DNA of 24,105 bases from assembly GCA_963828165.1 (NCBI GenBank), contig CAWHDR010000006.1, positions 1 to 24,105 of the forward strand. The letters are read 5' to 3'. This document shows, piece by piece, positions 12,984-24,105 of the stretch. The stretch comes from an uncultured Chloroflexia bacterium (GTDB lineage Bacteria > Chloroflexota > Limnocylindria > Limnocylindrales > CSP1-4). The notes under the pieces were generated by a model. The model worked only from the letters and a program-made list of their open reading frames with translations, had not been told where the DNA came from and made no database searches. Made by a program: the position numbers and the translations under genes. Each line of letters opens with the position of its first letter. The stretch's first letter is position 1.

Positions 12984-13003
12984 CGCTCGTGCAGTATGGC
13001 CAG

Positions 13004-13933
13004 ATGGCCGACGCCCCACCGCTCGTCGTGGTCGCGGGTGCGACGGCGACCGGCAAGACCGAGCTCGGGATCCGGCTGGCGGAGGCGTTCATCGCGGAAG
13101 GCCGGCCAGCGACGGTCATCTCGGCCGATTCCCGGCAGGTCTACCGCGGCCTGGACATCGGCACGGCCAAGGTGCGTGCCGCGGACCGGGCGCGCGTTCC
13201 GCACGAGGGACTGGATCTCGTCGATCCGCCGGAGCGGTTCGCGCTGGCCGACTTCGTCGCGCACGCCCGAGCGGTGCTGACCGGGGTGGCCGAGCGCGAC
13301 GGCGTCGCACTGCTCGTCGGCGGCACGGGGCTCTACCTGCGGGCCGTCGCGCGCGGCCTGGACCTCGAAGCGCTGCCGGACGACCCCGCGCTGCGGCAGC
13401 GACTCGAAGGGGAGCTCGCCGCCGACGGGCTGCCTGCGCTCGTGGACCGGCTGACGGTCCTCGCACCCACCCTGGCCGCGCAGACCGACACGGCCAATCC
13501 GCGCCGTGTCCTCCGGGCGTTGGAGATCGCCGAGCTACGCGGTGACGGACCGCGGCCCGCCCCGCTCGGCTACGACGGGCCCGTCGCCTGGATCGGGCTG
13601 ACGGTTGACCGCGCCGAGCACGAGCGCCGGATCGCGGCCCGTGCCCGGGCGCAGTTCGACGACGGGCTCATCGATGAGGCCGTGGCCCTTCGCGAGCGCT
13701 ACGACCCGGACCTGCCGGCCTTCTCGGCGATCGGGTACCACGAGGCCTGGGACGTCGCCGACGGCCGCCGCACCCTCGACGAGGCCGTGACGACCGACGC
13801 CCAGCGCAATGTCGCGTTCGCGAAGCGCCAACGGACGTGGTTCCGGAGCGAGCCCGACGTCCAGTGGCTGGAGGCGACGCTGACGGACCCGTTCGACCGG
13901 GCGCTCGCCGTTGCCCGGACGGCGACCGGCTAG
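13004..13933 (+). CDS. miaA: tRNA dimethylallyltransferase MiaA
   Basis: GATATGKT P-loop, ISADSRQVYRGLDIGTAK, VGGTGLY, AIGY, FAKRQRTWF; start placed at ATG 13004. Confidence 0.96.
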   Translation: MADAPPLVVVAGATATGKTELGIRLAEAFIAEGRPATVISADSRQVYRGLDIGTAKVRAADRARVPHEGLDLVDPPERFALADFVAHARAVLTGVAERDGVALLVGGTGLYLRAVARGLDLEALPDDPALRQRLEGELAADGLPALVDRLTVLAPTLAAQTDTANPRRVLRALEIAELRGDGPRPAPLGYDGPVAWIGLTVDRAEHERRIAARARAQFDDGLIDEAVALRERYDPDLPAFSAIGYHEAWDVADGRRTLDEAVTTDAQRNVAFAKRQRTWFRSEPDVQWLEATLTDPFDRALAVARTATG

Positions 13934-13948
13934 GTCCGCCGCCGATGG

Positions 13949-14548
13949 TCAGCCGTCGGCGAGCGTCGTCTCGTCGATGACTTCGTCCACGCCATCCACG
14001 GCCTCGATGACCGAGGCGATCGTGTCGCTGTCGTCAACGTCGTCGACGATCCCACGTACGACGGCCGTTGAGCCGCGTGTCCCGATGACGAGTCGGTCCG
14101 CATAGCCGCTCGTCGCGGCGTCGGCCTCGAGGGCGTCGCGGATGCGCGCGGTCAGATCCAGCTCACCCGAGTCGTCGATCGCGCCGGCCACCTCGATGCC
14201 TTCGGGGTCCTCGGCGTCGACCCGGAAGGGCGGGTCAGAAGGCGCGACGTAGGCGAGTCCTTCCTCCGTCGCAACGTCCGGGTCATCGGTCTCGCCCTCG
14301 CGCAAGTCGTCGAGCGCCAGCCCGTCGAGGCTCTCGGCATCTCCGTCCTCTACCTCTGGGTCCGGCGAAGGCTCACCCCGGTCGAGCTCGGTCCGGGTCG
14401 GTGTCCGCCGGCTCTCGATCTCATCGGGCTCCAGCACCGCGTCCTGGTCGACGGGCATCTCCTCGCCCTGAAGGCTCTGGATCTCTTCGATGAGGGCGAC
14501 GTCGTCGGGATCGAGCGGCCCTCGCGTTTCACCACGGTCTTCGGACAT
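13949..14548 (-). CDS. Highly acidic protein with C-terminal BON-like domain
   Basis: AGGAGG SD 7 nt before the ATG. The C-terminal ~70 aa ([12 protein letters not shown]...AVVRGIVDD...[13 protein letters not shown]) fits the BON pattern. The N-terminus is D/E-rich with no signal peptide. Confidence 0.75.
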
Positions 14549-14631
14549 GCGGGCACCTCCTGGGGAGCCCGAGCGTGACCGCCAGGGCGTTGCACGGGCG
14601 TCATCACGCGACCGCGCTATCCTGCACGCGC

Positions 14632-15969
14632 ATGACCTCCCGCCTCATCGATCTCGAAGTGCCGGTCGAAAAGGCCTTCCTCGTGGCCGTCGACACGGGC
14701 TCCGAGGACGGCTGGACGGCCCAGGAATCCCTGTCGGAGCTCGCGAACCTCGCGACCACCGCCGGGGCCGAGGTCGTGGGCGCGGAATGGCAGAACCGCC
14801 GCCACGTCGATCCCAACTGGTATATCGGCAAGGGCAAGGCGGAGGAGCTCGCGGCGGCCAAGCGCGAGACCGGGTTCGATCTCCTGATCACGGACGACGA
14901 GCTGTCGCCGGCCCAACAGCGAGCCCTCGAAGACCTGTTGCGGGTGAAGGTCATCGATCGAAGCCGGCTGATCCTCGACATCTTCGCCCTGCACGCGCAG
15001 ACCCACGAGGGCCGCCTCCAGGTCGAGCTCGCCCAGCTCGAATACCAGCTCCCGCGGCTGACGAAGCTGTGGACCCACCTCTCGCGCACCCAGGGCGGGA
15101 TCGGCTCGCGAGGGCCCGGCGAGAGCCAGCTCGAGACCGACCGGCGGATCATCCGGACCCGGATCTCGAAGATGAAGGAGCGCGTCGAGCAGGTCCGCCA
15201 GCAGCGCTCGACGGCGGCGCGCGGCCGTGACCGGCGCCTGTGGCCGACCGTCGGCATCGTCGGCTACACGAACGCCGGCAAGTCGACGCTGCTGAACACG
15301 CTCGTGGGTTCCGAGGTGGCCAGGGCCGAGGACAAGCTCTTCGCCACGCTCGACCCGACGAGCCGCCAGGTGAAGCTCGGCGAGGGCCAGACCGCGATCG
15401 TCACCGACACCGTGGGGTTCATCCACAAGCTGCCGCACCAGCTGGTCGACGCGTTCCGGGCGACGCTCGAGGAGGTCAACCGGGCGGATGTCCTGGTCGA
15501 GGTCGTTGACGCGTCCGACCCACACGTCAAGGAGCACCGGGCGACGGTCCAGACCGTCCTCGACGAGCTCGGGGCAGGGGAGAAGCCGCGGCTCCTGGCC
15601 TTCAACAAGGCGGACCTCGTGGAACGAGCCGCGCTGGACGGCGGCGCGGTCGCGCCGGCGGTCGCAGGATCGGTGCTGGTATCCGCACTGACTGGCTTCG
15701 GGATGGACACCCTCCGGGCCGAGATCGCAGCGCTGCTCGGAACGTTGTGGGTCGATATCGATGCCGCGTTGCCCTACACGGCCGGGGAGCTGCTCGCCCG
15801 GGTTCGCGAGCGCGGGACCGTGGAGCTCGAGTACGGCGAGCGGGACGTGCGGATCGTCGGTCGGGTGGCGCCGGCACTCGCCAGCGAGCTGGAGGCGGAG
15901 TCGGATCGCTGGGCGCTGGCCGCGACCGAGGCGACGAACGGGACGGGACCGACCGCCGCAGCAGGCTAG
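14632..15969 (+). CDS. hflX: Ribosome-splitting GTPase HflX
   Basis: [33 protein letters not shown]1 [26 protein letters not shown]. Start placed at ATG 14632 (TATCCT 8 nt upstream). Confidence 0.97.
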
Positions 15970-16034: not shown

Positions 16035-18197
16035 ATGTCCATCCCAAGCTCGGAACGGCGGCTGTCGCTGGCCCTCGTCGCGGCGTCGGCCATCGTCTTC
16101 GCCGTCGTGCTGGTGCTCGCGCCCCCGTTCGCGGTGACCTTCGACGAGGCCCGCTACGTTGGCGTCGGCTACGGCATGGTCGAGGGGCAGGGGCCGCAGA
16201 CCGTGTTCGGTGGCTACTTCCTGCCGCACGCGCCCGTGTGGTCGACCCTCGTCGTGGCTCCGGCGGTCGCGCTCGGGATCGACCCGCTCGTCGTGGGGCG
16301 GTTCCTCAACGCGCTGAGCGGCGTAGGCCTGCTCCTCGTGAGCGCCGCACTGGGATGGCGGATCCGGCCGGCTGCCGGCGGGCTTGCGGCCATCGCACTC
16401 CTGGCGACGACCTACGTGCACGAGCTGACCCGGACCTCGCGCCTGGACATCCCGTCGGCCATGCTTGCCGTCGCCTTCCTGGCGATGGGCCTCGTTGCCG
16501 TCCGGCGGGGCTCCACCTCGTATGCCATCGCAGCCGGGCTGCTGTTCGGGGTGGCGTTCCTCGTCAAGGAGATCGCCCTGCCGCTCGCACCCGTGCCGAT
16601 CCTTGCGGCCGTGCTGCATCGGCAGCCGTGGCGGCCGATCCTCCGTGCTGCAGGCTGGCTGATCCTGGGTGCGACGGCCGTGGTGGCACCGTGGTTCATC
16701 TTCGTGGCACAGGTGACCGACGAGGTCTACCGCCTGGGGACGCCGGGGTGGACGCTGGCACCCATCGGCGTCGCGTTGCTGGTGTTCGGGCTGGCCGCGG
16801 TGCTCGGGAGCCGGCTCGACCTGCCGAGGGCGGGGGAGCGGCTCGGCGGCCGGCTCGAGGGTCGCCGTCGCACCTGGCTGGTGATCGGCCTCACGATCGC
16901 GTGGGTGACCGGCCTGACGCTGGTCTTCACGGGCACGCTGGCGGGGCGCGGCACCGCGCTGATCGATCTGCCCCAGATCGCCCGGTACGTCCGCGAGTGG
17001 TATCCGATCCTCGTGACGAGCGGGATCGGCGCGGTCGGCCTGCTGCTGTCGATCGTGGCGCGCCGGGACGCGGCGTTGGGCCGGCGCGAAGCCCTGGAAG
17101 ACCTGTGGCTGGCCACGGTCTGTGGCCTGCCGCTCGTGATCCTGGTCATCGGCGTCGGGGAGGCGCCGCGCAACTACCTGGCCCAGCTCGCGATCGGAGC
17201 GGGTATCGCCGCGGCCGGGTGGCTGTGGCTGTTCGAGACGGCCCTCCGCCGCTGGCCCTCGCCGACGATCCTGGCGGTCGGTGCGGTCTTCGGCCCGATC
17301 CTCGGGGCCGCCGTCGCCGACGTCTTCGGGGTACGGATCCGGATCGGCCTGATCGGTGGGCTGGCCGTCGGCGTGATCGCGGCTGGTGCGGTCGCCGCTG
17401 CGCTCCGCGCCGGTCGCCTGGGTCCGCGGACGGACCCGGCCATGCGCGAACGCGCGGTCGCGGCCCTGCTGACCGTCGGCCTGGTGAGCGCCAGCGCCGT
17501 TCTCGTGACCTCGATCGACTTCCGCCGGACCGTCGCCACCAGGGAGGAGGCCGTCGACACCGTCGTGGCGTGGGTGCGGGACAACGCCGAGCAGGGGTCC
17601 ACGATCGCCTTCGGGTCCTACCTCGGCTTCGAGATGGGCCTGCCGCTACGGGACGACTTCAGGCTGCGTCAGGTCCGCCACGTGACCGTCGTGGTCGATG
17701 CCGAAGCGCCGGATGGCGTCACGGTGTTCGATCAGCCGGCGAGCGACGATTGGGTATCGATCGACATCGCGCCGAAGAACGTCAACGAATTCCAGGCGTT
17801 CTCGGCGGGCAAGCTCATCGGGCAATTGCGTGAGAGCGACGCGAGCTACTGGGTCTACACGACGGGTACGTCGACCGCGGCCCCCACGATCATCCCGGCG
17901 ATCGAGGGCGCGCCGGGTTTCGAGGAGGTCGCGCACTGGACCTTCGAACGACCGCGCGGCGCTCCGATCGAGTCATACGTCTTCCGACTGGACCTCGAGG
18001 AGCTCGCCCTCGACGACGCCCGGATCCACGTCGCGCCCGAAGCACTCGAGCGCATCGTGGCCTTCGTCGAACGCGAACAGGCCACAGAGCTGGCCGGCCG
18101 CCTCGTCCCGCAGGTCCAGGCCGAACCCACGACCGCAGCGACCGAAGCCCTCATGGATCGACTGCGCTCGATCGCGGGGGTGGCAGCCGATCCGTGA
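16035..18197 (+). CDS. Polytopic membrane glycosyltransferase, GT-C fold (PMT/ArnT-like) with C-terminal soluble domain
   Basis: First-loop FDEARY acidic motif, HAP, RFLNALSG, SRLD, AFLVKE, followed by many TM helices. Start MSIPSSERR at ATG 16035 has TACCAT 9 nt upstream. Confidence 0.8.
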   Translation: MSIPSSERRLSLALVAASAIVFAVVLVLAPPFAVTFDEARYVGVGYGMVEGQGPQTVFGGYFLPHAPVWSTLVVAPAVALGIDPLVVGRFLNALSGVGLLLVSAALGWRIRPAAGGLAAIALLATTYVHELTRTSRLDIPSAMLAVAFLAMGLVAVRRGSTSYAIAAGLLFGVAFLVKEIALPLAPVPILAAVLHRQPWRPILRAAGWLILGATAVVAPWFIFVAQVTDEVYRLGTPGWTLAPIGVALLVFGLAAVLGSRLDLPRAGERLGGRLEGRRRTWLVIGLTIAWVTGLTLVFTGTLAGRGTALIDLPQIARYVREWYPILVTSGIGAVGLLLSIVARRDAALGRREALEDLWLATVCGLPLVILVIGVGEAPRNYLAQLAIGAGIAAAGWLWLFETALRRWPSPTILAVGAVFGPILGAAVADVFGVRIRIGLIGGLAVGVIAAGAVAAALRAGRLGPRTDPAMRERAVAALLTVGLVSASAVLVTSIDFRRTVATREEAVDTVVAWVRDNAEQGSTIAFGSYLGFEMGLPLRDDFRLRQVRHVTVVVDAEAPDGVTVFDQPASDDWVSIDIAPKNVNEFQAFSAGKLIGQLRESDASYWVYTTGTSTAAPTIIPAIEGAPGFEEVAHWTFERPRGAPIESYVFRLDLEELALDDARIHVAPEALERIVAFVEREQATELAGRLVPQVQAEPTTAATEALMDRLRSIAGVAADP

Positions 18198-19773
18198 TCT
18201 CCGTCATGTCGTACGGCCGCAGCTTGCCGGCCGACGTGAACGAGCGATCGGGGAGCAACGGCAGGTCGGCGTCGAAATAGCGGTCGAACAGCAGGCGGAA
18301 GGTATTGACCGAGCTGAGGGTCGTCGACGGCGTCAGCGCGCCATCGCCGGGCAGGTACATCGCGTTCAGGATCCCGAACTTGATCTCCAGCTCGTCCGTC
18401 GAGGCGGTCGCCCAGTCGTACCCGATCGTGTTGCGGGCGTACTCGCGGGGGTAGGGGCCTTCGTCCGCCTGGAGGATGATGATCGGCCGCTCCGCCTCGG
18501 GACGGGCCAGCAGCCGGTCCACGAGGGCCTCGATCCGCGTCTGCAGGTAGGTCAGCTGTTCGCCGTACGCCAGTGCCTGCCGGCGACCGCGGTCCGCTTC
18601 GTCGGTCACGAACGACCCGTCGCTCGCGAACGTGTACGGGGGGTGCGGGATCATCACGTGCGCAAAGACGAATGCCGGACCTGGGTCGTCCGCGACGTCG
18701 TCGAGGGTATCGAGCTGGAACCGCCCGACCTCGTAATGTCGTTCGCGGGCCGGTGCCGCCAGGCTGATGCCGAGGCGGTGCGCCGCCGCTGGCAGCGCCG
18801 AGGTGTCGTACAGCGAGGCGACGAAATCGGACGGTCCGCCGGGCGGCAGGTTGCGGTCGGCGATCACGCTCGTCTTGGTCGGGCCGTAGAACGATCCAAC
18901 GTGGACGTACTGGTAGCCCCGCTCGCGCAGGAACCGGCCGACGGCGTGGTCCGACAGCCGTTCGAACACGGGACCGTGGTCGTCGGACGCGGGGTCCTGT
19001 GCGGCCACGAGGTCGTCGAGGTAGTCCAGATTCAGCGTCGCCGCCAGCGACAGCGACGTCTTGACGTAGTTCGCGTGGCTGTCGGTCACGATCTGGAACC
19101 CGCGAGCGCGAAGCCGATCGAGGAAGGGGCGATCGTCGATCTCGTACTGCAGCTGGAGGGAGCTCGCCGAGCCGTATCGATCGAACACGAGGTACCAGAT
19201 GTCACGGCCCGGGCCGGCGCTCCCGCCGATCGCTGCCTGCGCGGTCGTGCCGCGCCCGAAGCGGGCGATCTCGGCAGGGACGATCGTGACGAGGGCGAAC
19301 ACGACCAGGAGCGCCGTCACGATGTTGAGCGCGCGCGTCATGCCCGCCAGACGCGCATCGCGCAAACGGACCGCGGCGATGGCGACGACGACCAGGAATA
19401 CCGCCCAGCCGATCTGCTGGAAGCCCGCTTTGACGCCGAGCGGAGCCAGCACCCCGGCGAGGTGGCCGTACAGGAGCAACGCGGCCGCCAGAGCGGAGAC
19501 GCCGAGAGCCGCCCGACGCGCGTCGCCCAGGATGGGTGCCCCGATCAGCAGCAGCGCGAGCGCGGCCGCGACGATGACGACGAGCGGTGCGACCAGGTCT
19601 GACGGCTCGAGCTCGCCCAGGTTCTGCCCGTACAGGAACAGGACCGGGTACGCCGCCAGCAGCAAGGGATGCAGGGGCAAAGGTCGGCCACGCCACGCCG
19701 AGCGGATCCGCCCCGGGAGCCGAGCCGTCGCGCCATCGGCGGTGCCCGGCAGGGTCGGTGCTTCGGTCGTCAC
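18151..19773 (-). CDS. Membrane-anchored alkaline-phosphatase-superfamily (LtaS/sulfatase-like) protein, copy A
   Basis: About 5 N-terminal TM helices, then DIWYLVFDRY (metal Asp), ANYVKTSLS (putative Thr nucleophile), FAHVMIPHPPY, IIILQADEG. Confidence 0.8.
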   Translation of the reverse strand: MTTEAPTLPGTADGATARLPGRIRSAWRGRPLPLHPLLLAAYPVLFLYGQNLGELEPSDLVAPLVVIVAAALALLLIGAPILGDARRAALGVSALAAALLLYGHLAGVLAPLGVKAGFQQIGWAVFLVVVAIAAVRLRDARLAGMTRALNIVTALLVVFALVTIVPAEIARFGRGTTAQAAIGGSAGPGRDIWYLVFDRYGSASSLQLQYEIDDRPFLDRLRARGFQIVTDSHANYVKTSLSLAATLNLDYLDDLVAAQDPASDDHGPVFERLSDHAVGRFLRERGYQYVHVGSFYGPTKTSVIADRNLPPGGPSDFVASLYDTSALPAAAHRLGISLAAPARERHYEVGRFQLDTLDDVADDPGPAFVFAHVMIPHPPYTFASDGSFVTDEADRGRRQALAYGEQLTYLQTRIEALVDRLLARPEAERPIIILQADEGPYPREYARNTIGYDWATASTDELEIKFGILNAMYLPGDGALTPSTTLSSVNTFRLLFDRYFDADLPLLPDRSFTSAGKLRPYDMTEITDRLPPPRSSAVDP

Positions 19774-19874: not shown

Positions 19875-21467
19875 CTAGGATCCGGCGCTCGGCAGGCGAT
19901 CCGTGATCTCGGTGAGGTCGTACGGCCGGTATTTGCCCGCGGAGGTGAACGTCCGGTCGGGGAGCAGCGGCAGGTCGGCGTCGAAGTACGCGTTGAAGAT
20001 CAACCGGAAGGTGTTCACGGAGCTGAGGGTGGTGGGCACCGCGGGCGCCTCGCCCCCGGGCAGGTACATGGCGTTGAAGATCCCGAACTTGATCTCGAGG
20101 TCCTCGGTCGCCGCCGTGGCCCAGTCGTAGCCGACGGTATCCCGTGCGTAGTCGACCGGGTAGGGACCCTCATCCGCCTGGAGGACGATGATCGGCCGCT
20201 CGGCGTCCGGCAGCGCGAGGAGACGGTCGACCAGGGCCTCGAGTCTCGCCTGCAGATAGACCAGCTGCTGGGCGTACCCCTCCGCGTTGGTCAGCGCCGC
20301 GTCCTCCTCGTCGGTCAGGAACCTGCCGTCGCTCGCGAAGGTGTAGGGGGGATGCGGCAGCAGGACATGCGCGAAGACGAGCTTCGGGCCGGGTTCGGTC
20401 ACGAGGTCGTCCAGCGTGTCCAGCTGGAAGCGGCCGACCTGGTGGTGCCGCTCTCGTGCGGGCGTGTTCGTGCGGATCCGCAGCCGTCGCGCGATGGCCG
20501 GCAGTGCCGACACGTCGAACAGCGCGTCGACGAAGTCGGACGGGCCATCGATCCGTGGGTTGACATCCGCCAGCGGACTCGTCTCGGTCGGGTCGTAGGT
20601 CGAGCCGACGTGGACATAGCGGTAGCCTCGATCGTGCAGGAAGTGGCCGACCGCGTGGTCGGCAAGGTGCCGGTAGATGGCCCCGTGATCCTCCGAGGCG
20701 GGGTCCTGCGCGGCGACGATGTCGTCGAGATAGTCGAGATTGAGCGTCGCCGCCAGCGACAGCGCGGTCTTGACGTAGTTCGCATGGCTGTCGGTCACGA
20801 CATCGAAGCCTCGGGCGCTCAGCCGATCGAGAAAGGGCCGGTCGTCGATCCCGTAGAGCAGGTCGAGCGATCGGGCGGACCCGTAGCGGTCGAACACCAG
20901 GTACCAGATGTCGCGCCCTGGGCCCGCGGTGCCTCCGATGGGCGTCGCCGACGCCGCGCTCCGGTTCGCGCGAGCGAATTCGGCGGGCACGATCGACACG
21001 AGGGTGACGATCACCAGGAGCGCGGTCACGAGGTTCATCCCGCGGGTCACCAGGGCCAGTCGATCCGAGCCAGCCTTGATCGCGAACACCGCCGTGAGCC
21101 CGATGAGGGCCATCCAGCCAACCTGGAGAACGACGGCTCGGACTCCAAGGGGACCCAGGAGGCCCGCGACGTGGCCGTACAGGAGGAGCGCGGCAGCCAA
21201 GGCGGAAACGACCAGGGCCGCCCGCCGGCCGTCACGGACGACGTACGCACCGACGATCAACGCCGCCAGCGCGGCGAGGACGATCGCGGCGAGGGGTCCG
21301 ACGAGATCGCTCGGGGCCAGTTCGCCCAGGTTCTGCCCGTACAGGAACAGGACCGGGTAGGCAGCCAGCAGCAGGGGATGCACGGGGAGCGGCCGGCCGC
21401 GCCAGGGCGTGCGAAGCCGGCCTCCCGCCTGAGCCGTGGCTCGGGAGGCCGTGCTATCGTTGGTCAT
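19875..21467 (-). CDS. Membrane-anchored alkaline-phosphatase-superfamily (LtaS/sulfatase-like) protein, copy B (tandem paralog of 18151..19773)
   Basis: Collinear with copy A over the full length, with long identical blocks (HPLLLAAYPVLFLYGQNLGEL, AGPGRDIWYLVFDRYGSA, LSLAATLNLDYLDD, LQADEGPYP). Confidence 0.8.
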   Translation of the reverse strand: MTNDSTASRATAQAGGRLRTPWRGRPLPVHPLLLAAYPVLFLYGQNLGELAPSDLVGPLAAIVLAALAALIVGAYVVRDGRRAALVVSALAAALLLYGHVAGLLGPLGVRAVVLQVGWMALIGLTAVFAIKAGSDRLALVTRGMNLVTALLVIVTLVSIVPAEFARANRSAASATPIGGTAGPGRDIWYLVFDRYGSARSLDLLYGIDDRPFLDRLSARGFDVVTDSHANYVKTALSLAATLNLDYLDDIVAAQDPASEDHGAIYRHLADHAVGHFLHDRGYRYVHVGSTYDPTETSPLADVNPRIDGPSDFVDALFDVSALPAIARRLRIRTNTPARERHHQVGRFQLDTLDDLVTEPGPKLVFAHVLLPHPPYTFASDGRFLTDEEDAALTNAEGYAQQLVYLQARLEALVDRLLALPDAERPIIVLQADEGPYPVDYARDTVGYDWATAATEDLEIKFGIFNAMYLPGGEAPAVPTTLSSVNTFRLIFNAYFDADLPLLPDRTFTSAGKYRPYDLTEITDRLPSAGS

Positions 21468-21699: not shown

Positions 21700-23131
21700 C
21701 CCGGCCAACGCGGTGCCAGGCACCGACACGGCCACCCCGGCCGGCGCCGTCGAGCGGGACGGCGGCTCGTTCCGCGATCCGAGCGGTTTCATCTTCTGGC
21801 AGGACGGCCAGCCCTACCGCCAGATCCAGCGCAGTTTCGCGGCGGAGTGGGACGCGTTCGAGGCGAGCCCGCTCAAGCAGCGGCTCATCGAGGGTGACCG
21901 GCTCATCCCGTACGAGCCCATCTCGATCGAACGCGCGCAGGGCTCCGACGCCCACGCGGTCATCCGCCCCGAGAAGATCGAGTTCATCAGCTATCCGTTC
22001 GAGTGGACCTTCGGTGAGCTGCGCGATGCCGCGCTCCTGACGCTCGACGCGCAGCTCGACGCCATGGCCGAAGGCTGGCAGCTCAAGGATGCCTCGGCGT
22101 ACAACGTCCAGTTCCGTGATGCCCGGCCCATCCTGATCAATTCACTCTCGTTCGAGCCGCTCGAAGAGGGCGCGCCGTGGGTGGCGTACCGCCAGTTCTG
22201 TGAGCACTTCCTGGCGCCGCTGGCATTGATCGCCCGACGCGACGTCCGACTCGCGAGCTTGCTCCGCGCCGACCCCGACGGCGTGCCGCTGGATCTCGCC
22301 AGCAACCTTCTTCCGTGGCGGACGCGCCTAAGTTTCGGCTTGCTGTCGCATGTTCACCTCCATGCCCGAGCCCAACGGCGATATGCCGGCAGCGAGGATG
22401 AGGGCGACGTCGACGCGGCGCGGGGGGCGCGGATCAGCCGGCAGCGGCTCGAGGGCCTCATCCGGAACCTGCGTGGCACCGTCGAGCGGCTGCGCTGGGA
22501 GCCGGCCGGCACCGAGTGGTCCGACTACGCCGACCACACGAGCTACGGCGATGCCGCGACCGCGGACAAGGCGCGACTCGTGGAGGCGTTCGTCGGCGAG
22601 GCCACGGGCACGCGGCTCTGGGATCTTGGCGCCAACACCGGCCGGTACAGCCGGATCGCGGCCGACGCCGGCAAGCGCGTCCTGGCATTCGACATCGACC
22701 CGGCGGCGGCGGAGCGGAACTATCGCCAGCTACGCGCCGAGGGCAGGACCGACATCCTGCCGCTCATCCTCGATGTCGCGAACCCGAGCCCGGGTATCGG
22801 CTGGGCGGGTCGTGAGCGCCGCTCGCTCCTCGACCGCGCGGATCCGGACATCGCGCTGGCTCTGGCCCTCGTCCACCACCTGGCGATCTCGCGCAACGTG
22901 CCGCTGCCGATGGTGCTCGGGTTCTTCGCGGATCTCGCTCCGTGGGCGATCGTCGAGTTCGTCCCCAAGGAGGACCGCATGGTCCGGCGGCTGCTGGCCA
23001 CGCGTCGCGACGTGTTCCCCGACTACACCCTCGACGGCTTCCGGGCGGCCGCATCGGAACGTTTCGAGGTCGTGCGGGAGGCGCCGATCGAGGACAGCCT
23101 CCGGGTCCTGTTCCTGTTGCGCCGCCGCTGA
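21677..23131 (+). CDS. NoeA-like protein: N-terminal kinase-like domain plus C-terminal class I SAM-dependent methyltransferase
   Basis: GSFRDPSGFIF, ISYPFEW, LKDASAYNVQF, WVAYRQFCEHFLAPL (recalled as NoeA-family blocks); methyltransferase motifs WDLGANTG, AFDID, LALVHHLAI, VEFVPKED. Confidence 0.82.
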   Translation: MTAPGVADPANAVPGTDTATPAGAVERDGGSFRDPSGFIFWQDGQPYRQIQRSFAAEWDAFEASPLKQRLIEGDRLIPYEPISIERAQGSDAHAVIRPEKIEFISYPFEWTFGELRDAALLTLDAQLDAMAEGWQLKDASAYNVQFRDARPILINSLSFEPLEEGAPWVAYRQFCEHFLAPLALIARRDVRLASLLRADPDGVPLDLASNLLPWRTRLSFGLLSHVHLHARAQRRYAGSEDEGDVDAARGARISRQRLEGLIRNLRGTVERLRWEPAGTEWSDYADHTSYGDAATADKARLVEAFVGEATGTRLWDLGANTGRYSRIAADAGKRVLAFDIDPAAAERNYRQLRAEGRTDILPLILDVANPSPGIGWAGRERRSLLDRADPDIALALALVHHLAISRNVPLPMVLGFFADLAPWAIVEFVPKEDRMVRRLLATRRDVFPDYTLDGFRAAASERFEVVREAPIEDSLRVLFLLRRR

Positions 23132-23147
23132 GGTCTGCGTCCCCGGC

Positions 23148-23209
23148 TGTGGACAGCCTGTGGAGAGGCCCTCGAAATGCAAGCCTCCGGCAAGGAAACT
23201 CGTGGATAA
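23148..23209 (-). promoter_or_regulatory. Cluster of three DnaA-box-like 9-mers (unit 1)
   Basis: TGTGGACAG (23148), TGTGGAGAG (23159) and CGTGGATAA (23201) versus consensus TGTGGATAA, with 2, 2 and 1 mismatches. All are in the same orientation and the first two are 2 nt apart. Confidence 0.6.
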
Positions 23210-23250
23210 CACGATTGTCCCAGGGGTCCCGTGCGGAGAAGGTAGAGTCT

Positions 23251-23340
23251 CGCCGAAGGGGCACGAACATCTAGTGATCTGATCTGTGTTTACATGGATC
23301 GGGGCATCTAGTGATCGAGTTCCTTCGGGCGTTTCTTTTT
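23251..23340 (+). ncRNA. Candidate long-hairpin small RNA, unit 1
   Basis: 11 consecutive pairs 23278-23288/23293-23303 around a TTTA loop; basal GAAGGGGC/GTTCCTTC stem. Six G-U and no A-C pairs in these stems on the + strand. Followed by TTTCTTTTT; TAGAGT at 23243-23248 upstream. Confidence 0.5.
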
Positions 23341-23404
23341 GTCCGCCGGAGGACATGGTGCGGCAGGCGCGTGGCACGAGTGCCGGGGCGACCAGGTGCG
23401 GTTC

Positions 23405-23464
23405 TGTGGATGGGCTGTGGACGGGCGAGCCCGCACCGCACCCAATTCGCAAAGTCGTGCATAA
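23405..23464 (-). promoter_or_regulatory. Cluster of three DnaA-box-like 9-mers (unit 2)
   Basis: TGTGGATGG (23405), TGTGGACGG (23416) and CGTGCATAA (23456); nearly the same spacing as unit 1. Confidence 0.5.
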
Positions 23465-23507
23465 ACCCCTTTCCCAGGCCCCGGCCTCGCCGGATACAGT
23501 TCGTCTT

Positions 23508-23595
23508 GCTCAAAGGGGCGCCAGACCGCAAGTAGCGAGAGCGGCGTTTACATCGGTATTGACAACTACGGACCGGCCGTTCCTTCGGGCGTTTT
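23508..23595 (+). ncRNA. Candidate long-hairpin small RNA, unit 2 (more mismatched)
   Basis: GCTCAAAGGGGCG...CGTTCCTTCGGGC basal stem with imperfect arms centred on the same G-TTTA-C loop (23546-23551), followed by TTTT; TACAGT at 23495-23500 upstream. Confidence 0.38.
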
Positions 23596-23596
23596 G

Positions 23597-24105
23597 ATGT
23601 CCCGGGCAGCTCGCGCCGCGATCGCACACCCGGACCTGGAGCCGGCGGCCATCCGCGCCGCCCACGATCGGATCGATCCCGTCTTCACCGGCACGCCCCA
23701 GTACCTCCACGAGGGCCTGTCCGGCGCCTGGGCGTCCCGGTCGTGGTCAAGGTCGAGAAGTCAACCGGATCCGCGCTTCAAGGGCCGCGGCACGTGGGTC
23801 GCGACGGCGGCGCTGGCGGGGAGGGGGAACATCGGCGAGACCGTGCCATCGTGCGCGTGTCCGCGTAATCTTCGGCCAGGGCGTCGCCTACGCCGCACGC
23901 GCCCTGGGCGGGCCCCTGCGGCGCGCTTCTGCTCCACCCGGGCGAATTGCGCCAAGCACTTGACCGCACGCGGGCGCCGGCGCCACGGTGATCGAGGCTG
24001 GCGAAGATTTCGACGACGCCCGCGTCGTCTCAGAGACCTATGCGGCCGAGCACGATGCCACGCTCCTCGTCGATGGGGACGATGCCCGCATCGCGACGGG
24101 CGCCG
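23597..24105 (+). CDS. PLP-dependent enzyme, threonine/serine dehydratase family (fold type II); multiply frameshifted, runs off window end
   Basis: Fragments across frames: MSRAAR...IRAAHDRIDPVFTGTPQY, RLGVPVVVKVE, FKGRG (PLP lysine), FGQGVAYAARALG, GATVIEAGEDFDDAR...LVDGDDARIATGA. Confidence 0.78.
   Translation, partial: MSRAARAAIAHPDLEPAAIRAAHDRIDPVFTGTPQYLHEGLSGAWASRSWSRSRSQPDPRFKGRGTWVATAALAGRGNIGETVPSCACPRNLRPGRRLRRTRPGRAPAARFCSTRANCAKHLTARGRRRHGDRGWRRFRRRPRRLRDLCGRARCHAPRRWGRCPHRDGR

Follow-up and report, generated by a model that had tools for sequence, protein, structure and literature searches.

CsrB/CsrC and RsmY/RsmZ are activator-dependent RNAs present in multiple copies, in which repeated hairpin modules sequester a protein, and the bacterial Y RNAs, of which a genome has several, use a conserved stem formed by the 5′ and 3′ ends as a protein handle for a variable effector interior. 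DnaA, in turn, is a transcription factor for protein genes, and datA/DARS and oriC are clusters of DnaA boxes, such as may also be found away from dnaA.

Sibling small RNAs under a single regulator include the streptococcal csRNA1-5 (CiaR) and the Vibrio Qrr1-5 (LuxO) (PMC4211561), with CsrB/CsrC and RsmY/RsmZ listed there as siblings, and PMC2864571 lists the Chloroflexi-1 orphan RNA motif (RF01698) for Chloroflexus aggregans. No family of DnaA-box-driven RNA genes was found in the literature, nor was any description of the RNA family presented here, which could be contained in motif lists held in supplements or closed journals.

The locus considered here is found in an uncultured Chloroflexia bacterium, in a window of 24,105 nucleotides (the whole stretch of DNA that was analyzed), and belongs, as judged from its sequence, to a family of genes for structured RNAs that is real and absent from the catalogues.

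Comparison with described RNA families

The locus has the organization looked for in sibling small RNAs, i.e., paralogous RNA genes, each with its own promoter and with shared upstream sites, at the level of sequence. It resembles the csRNA and Qrr systems in its 2-6 paralogous RNA genes per genome, both in tandem and dispersed, with regulator sites upstream of the promoter. However, csRNA and Qrr base-pair with mRNAs, whereas the present RNAs are almost fully paired, apparently have DnaA as their regulator and, unlike csRNA and Qrr, vary approximately four-fold in size through the addition of arms. By analogy, the Csr/Rsm decoys are probably the best model of how these RNAs might work, although the ends of the present RNAs are locked in a conserved closing stem; membership of the CsrB/Rsm RNAs was rejected, given that GGA occurs in 2 of 249 hairpin loops and that CsrA was not found.

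The constant stem and variable interior also recall the Y RNAs, but the present 12-bp stem is unbulged, and thus without the bulged Ro60 helix, the RNAs have no Rfam match, and the Ro60 gene was not found, so a Y RNA was rejected. The boxes of datA/DARS and oriC differ from those described here, which are phased with a promoter and precede a conserved RNA. Chloroflexi-1 is similar in being a structured RNA from the same phylum with no assigned function, but the present element has no Rfam match at gathering or E-value thresholds. The element stands outside every named family compared, with an organization like that of the csRNA/Qrr siblings.

The search of the window against Rfam 15 returned no match at the gathering threshold, and at the E-value threshold the best was a eukaryotic miRNA (E 0.13, 21.6 of 56 bits); no credible match was obtained at either threshold for 38 other source loci. 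The sequence-only reading of this DNA had been unable to place the element in a known family, and it missed the class-wide family with modular interiors. Hfq, CsrA (PF02599) and Ro60 (PF05731) were sought in the source genome (87.7% complete) and were not found, and therefore no known sRNA-binding protein explains the RNAs.

Other candidates were also set aside, i.e., the SRP 4.5S RNA (RF00169), as the SRP RNA of the genome is located at C1:2331945, and tRNA-likeness, given that no ARAGORN gene falls on the elements. As to a possible rRNA-helix mimicry, the loops are similar to stable tetraloops of a common kind, the 16S h6 loop among them, but the repeated module of the family was found nowhere else in the genome, both of its two matches being family members.

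Source contig and the duplicated locus

The window is the entire contig C6 of a 3.3-Mb assembly with 70% GC, and is redundant with the end of contig C1 and the start of contig C5, with a likeness of 84-97% per BLAST block and of 86% to 100% in 500-bp slices, including indel-rich patches. C6 is probably a low-coverage redundant contig. By inspection, 23140..23605 is the sole large non-coding gap of the window, flanked by an unannotated 484-aa gene that ends at 23131 and by a threonine-dehydratase-like gene after 23597, which is frameshifted in the window in comparison with C1. The upstream landmark of the locus, which is not part of the RNA genes, is formed by miaA and hflX (12989..15969, + strand). 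Tandem genes and other envelope-type genes are inserted between hflX and the RNA pair; the tandem genes, at 18151-19773 and 19875-21467, are 74% identical at the DNA level, and the first has a sulfatase-domain match.

The gap had been read as a degenerate tandem duplication of two units, and this is borne out by the alignment of unit 1 with unit 2, in which the local score was 33 (16.8±2.1 in 1000 dinucleotide shuffles, maximum 28) and the global score 26 (-42.6±6.8 in 1000 dinucleotide shuffles, maximum -17). Mis-assembly, which had been named as a possible source of the duplication, does not explain it, as both units are found in tandem on C1 of the same assembly and also in relatives. The duplication is real and old.

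All the islands of conservation reported by the sequence-only reading are present, i.e., the TGTGGA pair (23148/23159 and 23405/23416, offset 257), TCGTG(G/C)ATAA (23200/23455, offset 255), TCCCAGG (23218/23472), AAGGGGC (23256/23513, offset 257), GTTTACAT (23288/23546, offset 258) and an exact 16-mer (23319/23579, offset 260), although the offset of TCCCAGG is 254, one below the claimed range of 255-260. TCCCAGG, which overlaps the variable -35, was rejected as a family motif.

Anatomy of the two units

In unit 1, on the + strand, a distal pair of DnaA-type boxes (23148..23167) with 11-bp spacing, in which the minus strand reads CTGTCCACA-type, is followed by a proximal DnaA-type box (23201..23209), which is TTATCCACG on the minus strand and lies directly upstream of the -35. 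The predicted sigma70-type promoter (23215..23243, + strand) is made up of the -35 TTGTCC (23215-23220), a 17-nt spacer and the -10 at 23238-23243, which is GAAGGT in the window. It precedes RNA 1 (23252..23330, + strand), of class 1, a rod of approximately 79 nt with a 12-bp closing stem and a UUUA apical loop, which has a folding z of -5.2 as well as covariation. Next come a T-tract and a short stretch that could pair again with the closing stem on its 3′ strand (23332..23346, + strand).

Unit 2 repeats this arrangement on the + strand, with a distal pair of DnaA-type boxes (23405..23424), a proximal DnaA-type box (23456..23464) that reads GTGCATAA in the window, and a predicted promoter (23471..23500) with a weak -35, TTCCCA, an 18-nt spacer and the -10 TACAGT (23495-23500). 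RNA 2 (23508..23590), of class 2, is an 83-nt rod that has the closing stem and apical stem-loop of RNA 1 with a different middle, and is followed by its own T-tract and downstream re-pairing segment (23592..23606). A strict sigma70 consensus scan returned 0 sites, because it is too strict for a weak -35.

The layout of boxes, TAnnnT hexamer, hairpin and T-tract that had been proposed for each unit is recovered in its parts, but the TAnnnT assignment was wrong in unit 1, where the hexamer TAGAGT had been taken as the -10 and the actual -10 is the one at 23238-23243, 17 nt after TTGTCC. Similarly, the first of the two proposed hairpins is upheld by its z of -5.2, whereas hairpin 2 as it stands in the window folds no better than shuffles (z +0.10); the C1 copies fold at z -6.3 (unit 1) and -4.9 (unit 2). 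At the positions where the window deviates from the family consensus, the C1 copy matches it, with TAAGGT for GAAGGT in the unit 1 -10, GTGGATAA for GTGCATAA in the unit 2 proximal box, and a paired mid-stem in unit 2, and these departures of the window are probably consensus errors.

The middle of RNA 1 has a two-fold symmetry, CA(U/A)CUAGUGAUC, and within 23265-23317 one 12-mer is present on both strands of this middle and pairs with itself, a dyad as expected for a homodimeric ligand. The dyad of class 2 is shorter and is centred on an A•A mismatch. Mimicry of an NrdR operator by the class 1 CATCTAGTG was rejected, given that class 1 fits one half-site only and class 2 none.

Conservation of the structure and of the promoter

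The two hairpins represent two classes that have the outer stem and the apical stem-loop in common. In an alignment of 29 rows, pairing was present in 96.4% of the cells and 15 of 34 pairs had two-sided changes, a level of covariation reached by 0 of 500 shuffles, with slid controls at 37-42%. Compensations were also found inside each class, in 9 of 34 and 6 of 33 pairs, although these counts ignore relatedness, and the covariation counts as a whole take no account of phylogeny, part of the signal being the split between class 1 and class 2.

The remaining statistics refer to 226 distinct elements, chosen by the stem, an end-paired fold and a box inside a 24-nt window. Tandem G•U is found at stem positions 10-11 in 211 of these elements although G-C would be allowed, and this retention therefore points to an RNA of the + strand. 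TAnnnT lies at exactly -13..-8 from the stem in 196 of the 226, a geometry of promoter and stem by which transcription would begin on the stem's first G, and 211 of the 226 have at least 4 T within the 9 nt that follow the stem. The status of these units as RNA genes is well supported.

In 215 of the 226 elements, all of them preselected for a box in the 24-nt window, the proximal box is located 49-51 nt upstream of the stem; among the stem-only matches, where the box was not a selection criterion, it is found in 131 of 146. This box is TTATCCACG in 154 elements and TTGTCCACG in 29 (together 183/226). The distal boxes played no part in the selection; their distances from the stem have maxima at -82/83, -92/93 and -103/104, i.e., about one helical turn apart, and those of unit 1 in the window occupy the family positions -92/93 and -103/104.

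Distribution and diversity of the family

The element is conserved in relatives, as a BLAST search, one of the checks that the sequence-only reading had proposed, gave partial matches to the gap in 34 of 36 genomes of the same genus; exact-pattern copies number 1-5 per genome in 22 of 23 relatives. A count of a class-1 pattern across the genus came close to its control level and, being poorly designed, was disregarded. The hairpin model (E<=0.1) matched 98 of 108 genomes of the same family and 1 of 42 of a reduced sister family, whose genomes of approximately 1.1 Mb agree with the account of CSP1-4 and Limnocylindraceae in PMC13212565, so that this sister family is probably the Limnocylindraceae. 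The model of promoter plus RNA (E<=0.05) matched 49/49 f1 genomes and 55/55 genomes of f3, a less closely related family of the Limnocylindria (53/53 without the unpublished G645 and G623), with 1-7 matches each, as well as 25/38 f4 genomes, weakly, 2/7 of f2 and 0/1 of f82. In a draw from the phylum at E<=0.01, all 15 positives were f1 or f3, with 0 of 136 other Chloroflexota. The f3 matches that were inspected retain the architecture, with the stem in a variant form, and related RNAs are present among the f4 matches.

Most of the named records with the stem are labelled Limnocylindrales/Limnocylindria or Chloroflexota MAGs. Pattern matches in 12 genomes outside the Limnocylindria were not confirmed by the model search, and matches labelled Victivallales, Corynebacterium and one viral contig were rejected, being without the promoter. 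The contig L152, labelled Gaiellaceae, carries a unit whose neighbours resemble those of the C1:873811 locus; it is probably a mislabelled or mis-binned contig, and offers no evidence for the Actinomycetota.

The source genome has five loci with promoter and closing stem, i.e., the two studied here and three elsewhere, which are C1:873811 (73 nt), C1:2017251 (77 nt) and C1:1734554 (185 nt, three arms, z -5.8). Across the family, the interiors range from 73 to 277 nt, with 1-5 hairpin arms, some of them repeated inside one RNA, and the class-2 arm is also found in two-arm versions. A module formed by a stem, a 2x2 loop and GAU-triloop-AUC occurs 3-4 times in single RNAs (L284, L285, L287), and is present in three families of the class.

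The member of 269-277 nt is represented by 54 distinct metagenomic copies, with the box in every one, and a metagenome scan with a 274-nt member, aimed at contigs of transcript size, gave 73 loci, all on contigs of more than 1.6 kb. In one genus, this multi-arm member (L266, L267, L269, L270, L346-L418) is located approximately 1.4 kb upstream of an 82-nt member, and it has strong conservation and covariation. In f4 (L324, L325, L326, L329), two box-driven RNA units are found beside pcrA and an ECF sigma/anti-sigma pair, and one of the two has the repeated GAU-triloop-AUC module.

DnaA boxes and the replication context

The box type TTATCCACG/TTGTCCACG is also found elsewhere in the source genome, with six such boxes in the dnaA-dnaN gap, five upstream of nrdJ and two upstream of a parA-like gene, regions that are typical DnaA targets, and the DnaA of this genome is canonical by profile. 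At the threshold of the scan, C1 has six clusters of at least three near-consensus boxes, and three of these, as well as several of the strict intergenic boxes, belong to the five RNA loci. A DnaA-box consensus is found at fixed promoter positions, as expected of a DnaA regulon at the level of sequence. The suggestion that the locus holds a pair of DnaA-controlled small RNA genes gains support from the promoter geometry, the covariation, the phased boxes and the conservation, although such control is here read from sequence.

The other suggestion, that of a bipartite replication-control locus, is unsupported because the oriC-type boxes are located between dnaA and dnaN, approximately 1.65 Mb away on C1, the two units may be 1 kb or 100 kb apart in relatives, and there are three further units. 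An origin was likewise rejected, given that the origin-type box cluster is at dnaA-dnaN, at C1 ~1.237 Mb, and that the element has five loci.

Some class-1 RNAs have no DnaA boxes (L023, L024, L029, L103, L106, L108, L110, L336; one of them in f3), and therefore the RNA can persist without the putative DnaA control, which suggests that class 1 is an ancient RNA with rewired control.

Outside the family, the nrdJ promoter (C1:2144130-2144310, L249) contains two NrdR-like boxes in addition to five DnaA-type boxes, of which four are spaced at 21-22 bp. Box-abutting promoters at C1:77745 (L247), C1:1134173 (L316) and in G187 (L342) lead into non-coding sequence of 130-200 nt that looks structured but has neither the closing stem of the family nor an Rfam match, and these are possibly further RNAs of the same putative regulon. 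A tRNA gene (L331; Lys, by eye) has a promoter with the same box directly upstream of its -35.

Proposed mechanism and alternative explanations

The two units may be paralogous genes, each with a promoter of its own, for structured small RNAs that act in trans; transcribed under the control of DnaA, these RNAs would work through their shape as protein decoys or scaffolds, a chain that we regard, taken whole, as somewhat probable. In the first step, sigma70 RNA polymerase would begin transcription on the closing stem's first G and end it at the T-tract, producing a nearly fully paired rod of approximately 80 nt, for which the case is strong. In the second step, which we consider likely, DnaA bound at three phased boxes, one of them abutting a -35 that is usually weak, would set transcription, most likely as an activator, so that the level of the RNA would follow free DnaA and the replication status.

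In the third step, the RNAs would act by shape and without base-pairing to mRNAs, given that 77% of their bases are paired and 23% unpaired, that the longest unpaired run has a median of 4 nt, and that the apical loops (CUUG, UUUA, CUCG, GNRA and triloops) interchange. The closing stem with its tandem G•U would be a common handle for one protein (stabilizer, nuclease or effector), and the variable arms would be the sites at which a protein partner is titrated or scaffolded, as the multiplication of arms within RNAs suggests, with the 2-5-arm members as multivalent versions. Chances for and against this step are about even.

The promoter boxes suggest an RNA output of a replication-control circuit, and if this reading is true, the RNAs would be a dedicated output of the replication status. 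It is conceivable, albeit rather doubtful, that DnaA switches on a class-wide “handle plus cargo” set of RNAs (one protein-docking stem with interchangeable, multipliable arms, 73-277 nt) that sequester or assemble proteins according to the replication state, as an RNA-based checkpoint or initiation feedback. The series of 1 to 5 arms on a constant stem makes the partner and the effect of valency directly testable, and RNA catalogues gain a new family from an abundant uncultured class of soil and sediment.

In an alternative that we hold to be unlikely, the units are cis-acting attenuator leaders, in which the closing stem is a long-range terminator and a ligand of the arms gates read-through to the downstream gene. 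This would fit the short T-tracts, the 5′ 12-mer, which by its sequence is able to fold on itself, and a conserved segment 9-18 nt past the stem that could re-pair with the 3′ strand of the stem, enclosing the T-tract, with at least 5 contiguous pairs in 124 of the 226 elements (45 and 35 of 226 in two control windows). This segment sits after the T-tract, however, and is thus too late for a classical antiterminator; one possibility is a refolding of the precursor after 3′ trimming.

The neighbouring genes bear on the same question. The next feature of 227 distinct units, with orientations that rest on our own gene caller, is a co-oriented gene in 121, as attenuation would predict, another RNA unit in 47 and a convergent gene in 37. 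On the other hand, a neighbour is visible for 205 units, of which 84 thus face a convergent gene or another, promoter-bearing RNA unit, which favours units that are independent of their neighbours and would act in trans, and the co-oriented downstream neighbours are unrelated, with no common pathway.

RNA-library data are also relevant to attenuation. A few words of the gap recur in six RNA-library runs, of which three were compared together with one DNA run, and contigs from three studies cover 23258-23757 at 80-99% likeness, spanning both units. These contigs continue into the downstream gene, as an attenuator would allow, one of them includes promoter sequence, the coding flanks are partly covered, and they give no ends or strand; they therefore fit read-through or DNA as well as transcription.

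It is improbable that the RNAs are a functional stand-in for the 6S RNA, i.e., long imperfect duplexes that bind the RNA polymerase holoenzyme, although RF00013 was not found in any of 41 class genomes and the present RNAs are, like 6S RNA, end-paired, largely double-stranded, possibly shape-acting and possibly siblings, being multi-copy, with some of approximately 180 nt. The two window RNAs have no central bubble, and the short unpaired runs of the family also argue against one; at 80 nt they are less than half of the 187-position 6S model, the members of ~180 nt are branched, and no Rfam 6S score was obtained even at permissive E-values. Identity with 6S RNA itself was rejected for want of the central bubble and of an RF00013 match.

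We give little credence to an explanation in which the DNA itself matters, with datA/DARS-like sites of DnaA titration or reactivation at which hairpin transcription would only be modulating, even though each genome has several dispersed clusters of 3-4 phased boxes and the boxes of other members are in both orientations. The covariation, the retention of G•U and the multiplication of the arms instead show selection on the RNA itself, the boxes are at a fixed distance from the -35/-10, and class-1 RNAs without boxes exist.

Still less credence is due to base-pairing sRNAs, or to precursors from which a double-strand RNase would release short guides. In favour of a precursor, RNase III could plausibly act on an imperfect hairpin of 80 nt, but there is no conserved single-stranded seed, the apical loops interchange, and Hfq was not found in the source genome, as noted above. 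In favour of base-pairing, sibling sRNAs under one regulator (csRNA, Qrr) usually act in this way (PMC4211561).

Finally, a mobile repeat of the REP/MITE type, or an artefact of assembly, suggested by the 12-bp terminal inverted repeat, the several copies per genome and the redundant, error-prone contig, is largely refuted and retains next to no probability, as there is only a handful of copies per genome, in syntenic placement (hflX in the studied slot at 43 of 55 rod-type loci, counted where the flank was 4.5 kb or longer; moaA for another member, which it adjoins even in a reduced genome of the Limnocylindraceae type), each with its own promoter, with no match in plasmid or phage collections and with viral-contig matches of 1 and 0, the one being without a promoter.

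Neighbouring genes

A constant partner gene was sought among the neighbours of the units and none was found, and the neighbours other than hflX vary among the loci. Several members (L245, L280, L281, L282, L332, L333) adjoin genes of nucleotide metabolism (purine nucleoside phosphorylase, thyX, thymidine kinase or upp).
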